This document shows, one piece after another, positions 8,774-12,018 of a stretch of 55,151 nucleotides of DNA (its first letter is position 1; every line of letters begins with the position of its first letter). Below the pieces are notes generated by a model. The model worked only from the letters and a program-made list of their open reading frames with translations. It did no database searches and was not told the origin of the DNA. Where the stretch lies: IMG/VR virus record IMGVR_UViG_3300047392_000113, positions 1-55,151 of that record, one strand, 5' to 3'. Source of the stretch: a virus (taxonomy: Duplodnaviria > Heunggongvirae > Uroviricota > Caudoviricetes). Made by a program: the position numbers and the translations under genes.

Positions 8774-9390
8774 TAACAGCGGAGCAATTTCACAAGCTAT
8801 TTCCACGTAATCCTGAGCCAGCTGTATGGGCAGAGGCAATGGCAAATGTTTTTCCAACTTATGATATTAACACACCACAACGTATTGCTGCTTTCTTAGC
8901 GCAATGTGGTCACGAATCAGGGGGTTGGACTACATTTGAAGAAAACTTGAACTATTCAGCGCAAGGATTGAGAAAGATTTTTGGTAAGTATTTCCCTAAC
9001 GATGAGTTAGCTTTAGCTTACCAGCGTCAACCTGAGAAGATTGCGAATCGTATCTATGCTAACCGTATGGGTAATGGACCAGAGGAATCTGGTGATGGAT
9101 TCAAATATCGTGGACGTGGACCAATTCAGTTAACTGGTAAATCAAACTATACATTATTCGCCAAGGATATGTTCGATGACTGGGAAAATGTAGTTGAGAA
9201 TCCAGATTGGGTTACGTATGACAAAGACTTCGCATTGATGTCTGCTATTTGGTTCTGGAATAAAAACAAACTGAACCATGAAGCTGATATTGGCGATATT
9301 AAAACTATGACTCGCAAGATCAACGGTGGTTACATCGGTCTTGAAGATCGTATCAAACATTATAATGAGTGCATTCACGAATTGACTTAA
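8770..9390 (+). CDS. GH19 (chitinase-fold) endolysin
   Basis: FLAQCGHESGG, ENLNYSA and YRGRGPIQLTGK motifs; TRKINGG C-terminus. Confidence 0.9.
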   Translation: MITAEQFHKLFPRNPEPAVWAEAMANVFPTYDINTPQRIAAFLAQCGHESGGWTTFEENLNYSAQGLRKIFGKYFPNDELALAYQRQPEKIANRIYANRMGNGPEESGDGFKYRGRGPIQLTGKSNYTLFAKDMFDDWENVVENPDWVTYDKDFALMSAIWFWNKNKLNHEADIGDIKTMTRKINGGYIGLEDRIKHYNECIHELT

Positions 9391-10043
9391 TGAAAACTTT
9401 TATACATCATGATTTTCCCAAACTGGAACGTGACACAAGCCCCGATGGCACAAGAGTCTACAAGACGCCATCGGGTCGAGCTTATCCAAGCGTTACAACC
9501 ATTACAGGGCAAGCCACCGCAGAAGGAATTAGAAAGTGGCGATTACGAGTCGGAGAAGAAGAAGCGAACCGAGTCTCAGGTAGAGCATCAGCACGTGGAA
9601 CGAGAATCCACCAGTACTGCGAAGACTACCTACGAGGAAACGTATTCGAAGCAGACATGTTCGACCTCGAAATGTTTAACTCGATCAAGTTCTTACTCGA
9701 CGACATCGACAATATTCACTGTTTGGAAACTCCGCTCTATTCTGATCACTTACAAGTTGCAGGAACAGTCGATTGCATCGCAGAGTTTCAAGGTAAACTT
9801 ACTGTTATAGATTTTAAGACAGCAAGTAAACCAAAAGACCGTGATGATATTTACCACTACTTTATGCAGTGTGCAGCTTATGCTGTTTCATTTGAAGAAC
9901 GTACTGGCATTCCTATCGGTAGGCTTGCAATTTTGATGGCAGTCGAGAACGACGATCCTCGTTGGTTTATCGAAAAACGTGATAATTGGATCGGTGGTTT
10001 TAGAAAATTGAGACTTGACTACAAGAACAAGTTTGGGATATAA
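9390..10043 (+). CDS. PD-(D/E)XK exonuclease (Cas4/RecB-like fold)
   Basis: YPSVTT, RGTRIH, AGTVDC, IDFKT and QCAAY motifs; TAATG overlap places the start at 9390. Confidence 0.85.
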   Translation: MKTFIHHDFPKLERDTSPDGTRVYKTPSGRAYPSVTTITGQATAEGIRKWRLRVGEEEANRVSGRASARGTRIHQYCEDYLRGNVFEADMFDLEMFNSIKFLLDDIDNIHCLETPLYSDHLQVAGTVDCIAEFQGKLTVIDFKTASKPKDRDDIYHYFMQCAAYAVSFEERTGIPIGRLAILMAVENDDPRWFIEKRDNWIGGFRKLRLDYKNKFGI

Positions 10044-10044
10044 T
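10015..10044 (+). promoter_or_regulatory. sigma70-type promoter for tmRNA
   Basis: TTGACT, 18 nt, TATAAT within the 3' end of the exonuclease gene. Confidence 0.7.
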
Positions 10045-10050
10045 TAGGTT

Positions 10051-10372
10051 ATGGTTGTATGAAGCAACTAGAAAAGTGTTCTGGACGGGAGTTCGATTCT
10101 CCCCACCTCCACCAAAAGCGTTAGTTCGGTAGCAATAGTGTGAGTAACTACATTCTTGTGCGAGTCAAGAGCGTTTTTGATGGGGGTGACTAGGTTTCGA
10201 CAGGGCAACAAGTACAGAAGTGGACAACTAGGCAATGCGAAAGCCTTTAGGATTGGGGTAACTCGGTCGAAGAAGCAAACAAAGTAAATGCAAACGACTC
10301 TGTCTACGCATTAGCAGCCTAAACGCTGCTTAGGGTTTCGGTTGGTTTCCTCGTAACAGAATAACCAACCAC
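10051..10372 (+). ncRNA. ssrA: circularly permuted (two-piece) tmRNA, tag ANDSVYALAA
   Basis: T-arm GGGAG-TTCGATT-CTCCC (10087-10103) and CACCTCC-A-CCA (10104-10114) come first. The 5' acceptor strand GGGGGTG (10182-10188, G3:U70 wobble) follows a 67-nt spacer. Tag frame 10290-10322; terminal hairpin GGTTGGTT/AACCAACC. Outer ends are approximate. Confidence 0.93.
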
Positions 10373-10390
10373 TTTTAACAAGGAGAAGTT

Positions 10391-10570
10391 ATGAAGACAT
10401 CTAGTTTAATTTTAGCAGCACTTTTAGCAACTGCTGGTGCTGTAAATGCAGCAGAACCTGCTAAAGCACCAGCTAAAGCTGAGAAGAAGGTTGAAAAGAA
10501 AGAAGTAAAGCCAAAAGCTCCACCTTCTGCCACAAAACCTACTCCGAAGAAAAAAGCAGAAGCTAAATAA
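10391..10570 (+). CDS. 59-aa secreted Lys/Ala/Pro-rich protein (not in ORF track)
   Basis: AAGGAG RBS; signal peptide MKTSSLILAALLATAGAVNA followed by a low-complexity K/A/P/E tail. Confidence 0.75.
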   Translation: MKTSSLILAALLATAGAVNAAEPAKAPAKAEKKVEKKEVKPKAPPSATKPTPKKKAEAK

Positions 10571-10573
10571 TAC

Positions 10574-10625
10574 AGAGGGTTGGAAGACCCCTAAAACTTC
10601 CATTTTACACACATCACAAAAGGAG
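10574..10625 (+). promoter_or_regulatory. candidate H-type RNA pseudoknot with an alternative SD-sequestering hairpin
   Basis: Stems AGGG/CCCT (or GGGT/ACCC) and GGAAG/CTTCC; TTCC-A-TTTT can instead pair with AAAAGGAG. Confidence 0.55.
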
Positions 10626-10631
10626 AAACCT

Positions 10632-10910
10632 ATGGCAAACTTAACGCCATTTGAAATCCGTCTTGAACTTCTCAAGATGGCAAAAGAAATGTTGGAGCAA
10701 GACTACTATGGTCTGCGAGAAAAGGTGAGCAACGAGTACGCATCTAAATGCGACTTTGCTAAATTGAATGGGCAACCCATTCCAGAACACCCAGGATTCC
10801 CAGCATTCCCAAATGAATCTGAAGTTATTGCGAAAGCAATTCAATTGAACGGATTCGTTTCACAAATCCCACAAACTACAATAGAAAAGACTAGCAAAAA
10901 GTCCACCTAA
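10632..10910 (+). CDS. conserved T4-like phage hypothetical protein
   Basis: TPFEIRLELLKMAK...HPGFPAFP...LNGFVSQ motif; AGGAG RBS. Confidence 0.8.
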   Translation: MANLTPFEIRLELLKMAKEMLEQDYYGLREKVSNEYASKCDFAKLNGQPIPEHPGFPAFPNESEVIAKAIQLNGFVSQIPQTTIEKTSKKST

Positions 10911-10918
10911 TGGGATTA

Positions 10919-10941
10919 GGGTGCATTCGTGCACCCTTCTT
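10919..10941 (+). terminator. intrinsic terminator with UUCG tetraloop
   Basis: GGGTGCA-TTCG-TGCACCC followed by TTCTT. Confidence 0.65.
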
Positions 10942-10957
10942 AACTCAAGGAGATATT

Positions 10958-11464
10958 ATGCGAAGTATATACTTACCTCTCATAACAATAGGTATTTGTT
11001 TGTTAACACTGTTAACTATAACAGAACAAACTGATAAACTATTAGAAATTCGTTATACACATTTAACAAAAGATACTCAAAAACAGATTGACTGTTTAGC
11101 TGATAACATTTATTATGAAGCTGGATTTGAACCATATAATGGACAAGTTGCTGTTGCTTTGGTTACGCTTAACAGAACGCAAGACCCACGTTTCCCAAAA
11201 GATATTTGCTCTGTAGTGAAACAAAAGGTAAAATCAACTTGTCAGTTTACTTGGTTCTGCGAAAACTTCAAAACAAAATCTAAGGAAGTATACGATAGAG
11301 CGAGGGAAATCGCCATTCATGTATATGTAAACTACGAGAAGTTACCAGATATCACTAATGGTGCGTTATTCTACCATGCTGATTATGTTAACCCTCGATG
11401 GAAACTGGAACGAACTGCTGTTATTGGCAGACATATTTTTTATAAAGACAAGGATCGTATATGA
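10958..11464 (+). CDS. SleB-like cell wall hydrolase with N-terminal membrane anchor
   Basis: IYYEA, VAVALVTLNR, CQFTW, GALFYHA and IGRHIFY motifs; start moved to ATG 10958 after AAGGAG. Confidence 0.88.
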   Translation: MRSIYLPLITIGICLLTLLTITEQTDKLLEIRYTHLTKDTQKQIDCLADNIYYEAGFEPYNGQVAVALVTLNRTQDPRFPKDICSVVKQKVKSTCQFTWFCENFKTKSKEVYDRAREIAIHVYVNYEKLPDITNGALFYHADYVNPRWKLERTAVIGRHIFYKDKDRI

Positions 11465-12018
11465 TGAACAAACTAAACCTCCAATTGAAAGAGGAATCTT
11501 CACGACACTCATTCATGCTGTTAATGGAGGAAATTAGTTTACAGTCAGTTAAAACTGCTGTTGAATGGATTTTCGAAGCTAACTTTACTGAAGAACGTCC
11601 AGAGATGCTTAACTTAGTTATTACATCTCCAGGTGGTGATCTAAATGCAGCATTTGCATTGATTGATGTTATGCGTGGTTCTGCCATCCCAATTCGTACA
11701 ATCGGGCTTGGACAAATTGCTTCAGCTGGTTTAATGATCTTTATCGCTGGAGATAAAGGTATGCGTATCTTAACGCCAAATACTTCTATTCTTTCTCACC
11801 AGTACTCATGGGGTGCTATTGGTAAAGAACACGAACTCTTTGCTACGGTTAAAGAGTTTGATTTGACAACTAAAAAGATGATTCAACATTATAAGAAATC
11901 AACTGGTCTTTCAGAGGCGAAGATTAGAGAGATTCTACTCCCACCACAGGATGTGTGGTTAAGCCCTCAAGAAGCTAAAAAACTAGGATTATGTGATGAT
12001 GTCAAGGATCTTACTTAA
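11461..12018 (+). CDS. clpP: ClpP-like protease subunit
   Basis: ITSPGG, GQIASAG (catalytic Ser), SHQ (His) and QDVW (Asp). Confidence 0.88.
   Translation: MMNKLNLQLKEESSRHSFMLLMEEISLQSVKTAVEWIFEANFTEERPEMLNLVITSPGGDLNAAFALIDVMRGSAIPIRTIGLGQIASAGLMIFIAGDKGMRILTPNTSILSHQYSWGAIGKEHELFATVKEFDLTTKKMIQHYKKSTGLSEAKIREILLPPQDVWLSPQEAKKLGLCDDVKDLT

Follow-up and report, generated by a model that had tools for sequence, protein, structure and literature searches.

A circularly permuted tmRNA gene of betaproteobacterial type in a T4-like freshwater phage

In Caulobacter, a permuted tmRNA precursor is reportedly cut into cooperating acceptor and coding pieces, a result attributed to Keiler, Shapiro and Williams in 2000, and a betaproteobacterial two-piece tmRNA is said to have been described by Sharkady and Williams in 2004. 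Such genes are also known from phages. Buchholz et al. 2022 described the two-piece ssrA gene of phage Melnitz (PMC9004378). In the survey published there, 402 of 18,146 phage genomes had a tmRNA, and 53 of the 133 unique phage tmRNA forms were two-piece, 50 of those 53 being marine or aquatic; the Stenotrophomonas phages Mendera, Moby and YB07 are marked 'Permuted' in its Table S1 (PMC9004378). A 2025 tmRNA database holds 79 phage sequences (PMC11915505). An earlier note on the DNA studied here implied that a two-piece tmRNA is a rarity in phages, which is contradicted by the 53 already published from isolated phages (PMC9004378). Phage two-piece tmRNA is documented in aquatic and Stenotrophomonas phages, and the gene described here is a further example.

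The gene lies in a window of 55,151 nucleotides, the whole stretch of DNA that was analysed, which forms the first 55 kb of a viral record of 170,832 bp. The record is rated complete; its terminal repeat measures 127 bp and its G+C content is 40.3%. T4-type baseplate and tail-fibre proteins are encoded in the window, and the record is that of a lytic T4-like freshwater phage. The nearest isolates, judged by their gp6 baseplate wedge protein (39–40% amino acid identity), are the Pelagibacter phages Mosig and HTVC008M and the Methylophilales phage Melnitz. A megablast search of positions 9000–12000 against isolated phages gave no match, and the DNA recurs mainly in freshwater metagenomes. The record also contains 33 tRNA genes, clustered at 138–153 kb, approximately 128 kb from the tmRNA gene. 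At the end of this cluster (positions 145355–145429 of the record) is a tRNA with a CUA anticodon, an amber suppressor that ARAGORN labels Pyl.

A phage-encoded, circularly permuted, two-piece tmRNA had been proposed at positions 10051–10372 (+ strand), and ARAGORN, Rfam and the complete T4-like genome all agree with this proposal. The permuted tmRNA is the sole ARAGORN call in the 55-kb window and has the tag ANDSVYALAA. Comparison with the Rfam covariance models by Infernal had been suggested as a check, and two models, RF04321 and RF01850, exceeded their gathering scores. These are the only Rfam matches across the window, and both are at the tmRNA gene. The tmRNA_permuted model (RF04321) scored 121.9 bits (cut-off 47, E-value 2.3e-23), with an alignment that spans model positions 1–213 of 213 and window positions 10053–10322. 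The beta_tmRNA model (RF01850) scored 95.2 bits, a modest margin over its cut-off of 84 (E-value 1.2e-27). RF01850 was the top-scoring member of its clan, with a match that includes the 3' hairpin of the subtype; the alpha, cyano and standard models gave lower scores and were removed as overlapping matches. The subtype of this tmRNA is betaproteobacterial.

The order of the parts is permuted, as the T-arm, the 3' acceptor strand and the CCA all lie 5' of the GGGGGUG strand and the tag frame. The acceptor piece (10051–10114) is delimited by the RF04321 and RF01850 alignments, by compensatory changes in RNAalifold, by the covariation control and by its identity to a related locus, L011. It holds the 5' strands of P2 (10052–10058 and 10077–10083), the T-arm (10087–10103; stem GGGAG/CUCCC, loop UUCGAUU), the 3' acceptor strand CACCUCC (10104–10110), the discriminator A73 (10111) and an encoded CCA (10112–10114). 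Between this CCA and the 5' acceptor strand is a spacer of 67 nt (10115–10181), which is predicted to be excised from the precursor. The coding piece (10182–10372, its 3' end being approximate) is defined by the Rfam alignments, by RNAalifold and minimum free energy folds and by its near identity to L011. It begins with the 5' acceptor strand GGGGGUG (10182–10188) and continues with the 3' strands of P2 (10201–10207 and 10224–10230). The two acceptor strands, 10182–10188 and 10104–10110, form seven of seven pairs, among them the alanine determinant G3:U70 (G10184:U10108), which is accompanied by A73. Each element that the earlier note had named (T-arm and CCA before GGGGGTG, complete pairing, G3:U70, 67-nt spacer, ANDSVYALAA followed by a stop) was found in place.

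Between P2 and the tag there are one or two simple hairpins (10230–10246 and 10251–10268 in the folds), and no second PK1 stem was found by eye. The second of these hairpins is missing from many relatives (alignment A1). At three related loci (L029, L044 and L050), an additional 30–50 nt is found in or beside it (alignment A1, columns ~220–290), so the region 5' of the resume codon tolerates large additions. The tag frame called by ARAGORN (10290–10322) opens with the resume codon GCA and encodes ANDSVYALAA up to the stop codon UAA (10320–10322). It is preceded by GUAAAU, which places U and A at −5 and −4, the frame-setting positions of the E. coli tmRNA, and the upstream box GUAAA(C/U) is kept across relatives (alignment A1). 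An ALAA end is the canonical ClpXP/ClpAP degron. The stop codon falls in the loop of a hairpin (10313–10330). The 3' hairpin (10340–10370) has 8 bp and a 15-nt loop and is followed by ACUUUU. Its loop is nearly invariant and resembles the consensus loop of the beta model. The UCCU at the start of this loop could pair with AGGG at 10332–10335 as a candidate pseudoknot, in a stretch that shows no variation.

Relatives of this phage were retrieved with a pattern that combined the T-loop with both acceptor strands and the GGUUUCGAC box and allowed 35–65 nt for the spacer; at least 49 IMG/VR viral contigs match. That the acceptor stem, T-loop and GGUUUCGAC box are invariant among the retrieved relatives follows from their being fixed in the pattern. 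The same order of genes recurs (PhoH, lysozyme-like gene, nuclease, tmRNA, orf92, hydrolase, ClpP), with 40–95% amino acid identity. ARAGORN found an intact permuted tmRNA in 46 of the 49 contigs, in most cases with a tag that fits ANDxx(F/Y)ALAA, and the changes within the tag frame among these 46 are synonymous and conservative. At one related locus, L033, the acceptor piece, the spacer and the 5' part of the coding piece are present; no recognisable tag frame or 3' hairpin was found at the aligned position and no tmRNA by ARAGORN, so this may be a decayed or rearranged copy.

The complete phage genome gave no match to SmpB (PF01668), and the RNA would therefore depend on host SmpB; its place in the tmRNA family is unaffected by this. 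The need to bind host SmpB is also compatible with a different role, that of an inhibitory decoy, in which a tRNA-like mimic would compete with the host tmRNA for SmpB or AlaRS and block trans-translation. There is a precedent in mycobacteriophage DS6A, for which a tag-less tmRNA-like RNA has been reported to block trans-translation (cited in PMC11915505). Unlike the DS6A RNA, the present one keeps the full tag frame, with resume codon, upstream UA, stop codon and ALAA end, and the pattern of change in the 46 relatives indicates that this frame is conserved. We therefore regard the decoy as very improbable.

RNAalifold, applied to 39 distinct sequences, recovered both parts of P2, the T- and acceptor stems, a closing stem for the spacer, the stop-codon helix and the 3' hairpin, with compensatory changes at 32 of 54 pairs. 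The five helices that lie outside the search pattern are 93–100% paired, and none of 500 shuffles was as good. When the partner strand was slid by 1–3 columns, pairing fell to 21–91%, the T-stem dropping least. P2a is 93% paired, with double changes at 5 pairs, and P2d is 100% paired, with double changes at 4 pairs (0/500 shuffles as good in each case). The 3' hairpin, 93% paired, has double changes at seven of seven pairs. Two open reading frames that overlap the RNA, 10068–10235 (−) and 10156–10287 (+), were taken to have arisen by chance, since substitutions in this region follow the pattern of paired RNA.

The comparison with L011 separates the mature parts of the RNA from everything around them. 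The flanking genes are 72–81% identical at the DNA level, the acceptor piece is identical at all 64 bases, and the coding piece is identical at 189 of 191, where a single compensatory pair in the 3' hairpin accounts for both differences. The two spacers have no real alignment. The mature parts are thus under strong selection, and the spacer is free to change except at its ends and closing stem. These data also bear on the possibility that the gene is a passenger without a role in the phage, a copy or fragment of a host ssrA acquired when a prophage was wrongly excised, or retained as an attachment site. Integration at tmRNA genes is common, and fragments of ssrA are found in prophages (PMC9004378, PMC11915505). 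The gene studied here is complete, sits in a lytic T4-like genome and occupies a fixed slot in dozens of diverged relatives, with compensatory changes and with conservation far above that of its flanks. Furthermore, when the tmRNA was compared by BLAST with 401 Burkholderiales genomes, no near-identical host copy and no close full-length relative was found; the matches covered only 30–46 nt in the T-arm/acceptor region. A passenger origin is thus extremely improbable, and the tmRNA gene is real and, from its sequence, most likely functional.

The spacer had been described as structured, which holds for the precursor but not for the spacer by itself. When folded with both acceptor strands it reaches −32.9 kcal/mol (z −4.4) and its closing stem covaries, whereas the isolated spacer has a stability like that of shuffled sequence (z −0.5). 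The closing stem, which extends the acceptor stem, is 95% paired, with double changes at 7 of 8 pairs and 0/500 shuffles as good. In the window the spacer has AAAG at its start and UUUUUGAU at its end, and there is no open reading frame within its 67 nt (10115–10181). All phage copies have a spacer that opens with (A/G)AAG or a covarying equivalent and closes with the complementary bases and then an invariant UGAU before G1. Three of the four UGAU bases could form pairs with the ACCA end, which would extend the acceptor helix into the spacer stem. Among 38 sequences there are 17 types of spacer, compared with only 6 for the P2 5' strand and 7 for the tag. The relatives are mosaics, with all four combinations present for several segment pairs in this set, and the spacer type of the window is unique within it.

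The gene had also been credited with its own σ70 promoter. A σ70-type promoter is predicted at 10015–10044 (+), with −35 TTGACT (10015–10020), 18 nt, and −10 TATAAT (10039–10044), matching the consensus at 11 of 12 positions. It runs over the stop codon of the preceding nuclease gene; its −10 element ends 7 nt before 10051, and transcription is predicted to start at ~10051, where P2 begins. The evidence for it comes from the quality of the match and from its position, not from the number of sites, as promoter-like sites in the region are no commoner than in shuffles (4 versus 5.4). In approximately two-thirds of the relatives a TTGAC(A/T)-17-TATAAT element, often TGTATAAT, is found at the matching offset from the RNA. 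The remaining third have no promoter at that offset, and an open reading frame runs up to the RNA; those RNAs would need 5' processing. No second promoter for the coding piece was found inside the spacer by the criteria of the promoter scan.

At the other end of the gene, the 3' hairpin is followed by just four U, with a ribosome-binding site (AAGGAG, 10379–10384) and the next gene directly after it, so read-through past the tmRNA is possible. This next gene has 59 codons (10391–10570, +) and starts 20 nt past the hairpin, behind its strong AAGGAG site; a signal-peptide-like start and a Lys/Pro/Ala-rich tail predict a secreted, lysine-rich product. A small gene starting MKK... occupies the same place in many relatives, suggesting that the tmRNA transcript may continue into a messenger. 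Two freshwater metatranscriptomes contain contigs over small parts of a 3-kb stretch, mainly over the coding piece (10172–10372). These contigs come from relatives (90–99% alike), their depths are summed over organisms and RNA ends cannot be read from them. One contig continues into a different spacer, and a DNA run has similar peaks. As the contigs belong to relatives and the DNA run peaks alike, we rejected this cover as a sign of expression or processing.

The neighbouring genes place the tmRNA in a recognisable slot. Upstream are genes for PhoH, a glycoside hydrolase and a PD-(D/E)XK nuclease (9369–10043, +; Pfam PF12705, phrog_298), the last forming the left flank of the slot; in Melnitz, Mosig and the related contigs, a homologue of this nuclease directly precedes the tmRNA. 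Downstream are the 59-codon gene, orf92 (92 codons, 10632–10910, +; no function assigned from sequence), a cell-wall hydrolase and a ClpP homologue. We considered orf92 as a relative of the Melnitz late-transcription coactivator and dropped the idea, as there is no similarity. The ClpP homologue (11461–12018, +; Pfam CLP_protease, 103 bits) is 1.1 kb 3' of the tmRNA, and its Ser-His-Asp triad aligns with solved ClpP structures. It is suggestive that a phage ClpP lies beside a gene encoding a ClpXP degron tag. ClpP is kept at the locus in most freshwater relatives; since it is absent from Melnitz, Mosig, Marzo and some freshwater relatives, we rejected it as an obligate partner of the tmRNA.

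Taken together, the ARAGORN and Rfam scores, the alanine determinants, the covariation, the conservation relative to L011, the spread among relatives, the promoter and the phage context support a functional reading. We conclude that this is very probably a functional ssrA gene, circularly permuted and of betaproteobacterial type, in a lytic T4-like freshwater phage. The best reading of its purpose is that the phage would supply ribosome rescue. In the mechanism that we propose, host RNA polymerase would start at the early-type σ70 promoter at ~10051, so that the 5' end of the transcript would be the start of the acceptor piece. The covariation indicates that in the precursor the acceptor strands pair and the closing stem of the spacer stacks on that helix. 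By analogy with the two-piece tmRNA of Caulobacter, host RNase P would then cut before G10182, host 3' nucleases would trim to the encoded CCA at 10114, removing the 67-nt spacer, and the two RNAs would stay joined via helix P2 and the acceptor stem. Host AlaRS would charge the RNA through G3:U70 and A73, and host SmpB and EF-Tu would bring the charged RNA to stalled ribosomes, where translation would resume at GCA 10290 and add ANDSVYALAA. We conjecture that the phage would benefit from ribosomes being kept free and truncated proteins being recycled, perhaps while host mRNA is destroyed and host transcription, including that of the host ssrA, is shut off. In the literature surveyed there is no experimental demonstration of a role in infection for any phage tmRNA.

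A more specific purpose would give the RNA the same anatomy. The gene could work as a tmRNA that substitutes for a host tmRNA lost to decay after transcription shut-off or to host defence or, in a variant of this idea, could free ribosomes stalled by mRNA-cutting abortive-infection toxins. The early-type promoter suits a need early in infection, and the phage invests heavily in translation RNAs, with 33 tRNAs that include the CUA suppressor. However, no defence or anti-defence gene is tied to the locus, where the neighbours are the nuclease, the small secreted protein, the hydrolase and ClpP, and the sequence offers nothing that separates such a purpose from general rescue. We consider replacement or counter-defence, in either form, rather unlikely, and ribosome rescue in general remains our preferred reading.

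The gene had also been put forward as a clue to host range. An exact search for the tRNA-like core with a 35–65-nt spacer gave 11 matches among 185,579 species genomes; 10 were Herbaspirillum, Noviherbaspirillum, Herminiimonas or Duganella, and one was an unclassified proteobacterial metagenome-assembled genome. Together with the match to the beta model, these Oxalobacteraceae-like core matches point to Burkholderiales as the source lineage. However, the type of tmRNA is not a reliable marker of the host, because the search pattern biases the result, because the 401 Burkholderiales genomes contain no close full-length match, because Marzo, with a Stenotrophomonas host, has a beta-type tmRNA and because Melnitz, with a Methylophilales host, has an alpha-type one (PMC9004378). 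The gene may thus serve weakly as a host-range clue.

A further, tentative idea is possible but on balance doubtful. The tmRNA slot 3' of the PD-(D/E)XK nuclease may be an exchange point at which alleles and, separately, spacers are swapped by recombination. The swaps would run through the invariant tRNA-like boxes, possibly with host ssrA, giving alpha alleles in marine relatives and the beta allele here. If this is true, the tmRNA allele would record a recent host lineage, and the ClpP 1.1 kb downstream could form a phage-owned tag-and-degrade pair with the tag.

The locus adds a clean and complete freshwater case to the published phage two-piece tmRNAs and leaves general knowledge of tmRNA or of phages unchanged. 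New here are the subtype, the alpha/beta contrast with Melnitz in a syntenic slot and the covariation support for the precursor fold, as well as the positionally conserved promoter and a pair of loci with near-identical RNA (99–100%) but different spacers. The L011 pair is a natural experiment on which parts of the precursor are held by selection. A beta allele where Melnitz and Mosig hold alpha alleles bears on the published idea that the type of a phage tmRNA records host history.

Melnitz and Mosig resemble the window in having a permuted ssrA gene in an aquatic T4-like myophage, with all scores above the RF04321 cut-off and with the tmRNA slot downstream of PhoH and the PD-(D/E)XK nuclease. 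In Melnitz, the tmRNA in this slot precedes replication genes. Their tmRNA is of alpha type by Rfam (RF01849), whereas that of the window is of beta type (RF01850). Melnitz also has a glutamine riboswitch directly 3' of its tmRNA; in the window, neither a riboswitch nor any other family was found at 9950–10650 with Rfam at a permissive threshold. The window phage differs from both in being a freshwater phage with a larger genome (171 kb, 33 tRNAs). We know of no experimental test of the Melnitz or Mosig tmRNA.

The Menderavirus phages (Marzo, Mendera, Moby, YB07 and IME-SM1) share the beta type with the window, having a permuted tmRNA of that type (RF01850, 94.6 bits; RF04321, 119 bits) in T4-like genomes of ~160 kb. 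Stenotrophomonas, their gammaproteobacterial host, probably has a one-piece tmRNA. The Menderavirus acceptor piece is 80.6% identical to that of the window over 72 nt, and the spacer is a 57-nt hairpin that ends in UGAU. In Marzo, the tmRNA gene lies within the tRNA array, between tRNA-Leu and tRNA-Thr, whereas in the window phage it is far from the tRNA cluster. The Menderavirus tag is longer and ends in IAA (ARAGORN), in contrast to the ALAA end in the window.

Among bacteria, the beta-type genes of Herbaspirillum, Herminiimonas, Duganella and Noviherbaspirillum are like the window in the order of their parts, in the tRNA-like core and in the loop of the 3' hairpin. Their spacers are of a similar design to those of the phages, a hairpin that ends in CUGA and one further base before G1, but are shorter (35–49 nt, compared with 53–67 nt in phages). 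Outside the tRNA-like core, DNA similarity is too low for BLAST. The bacterial tags end in YGT or LAA (ARAGORN), whereas phage tags end in ALAA. In several Herbaspirillum genomes (Oxalobacteraceae; loci L052–L062) ARAGORN gives tags ending in YGT in place of the usual LAA, such as ANDSQFLAYGT, which would be either an unusual Herbaspirillum degron or a wrong frame call. The Caulobacter two-piece tmRNA, from which the mechanism proposed here is taken, differs from the window's gene in being of alpha type and encoded by a bacterial chromosomal gene.
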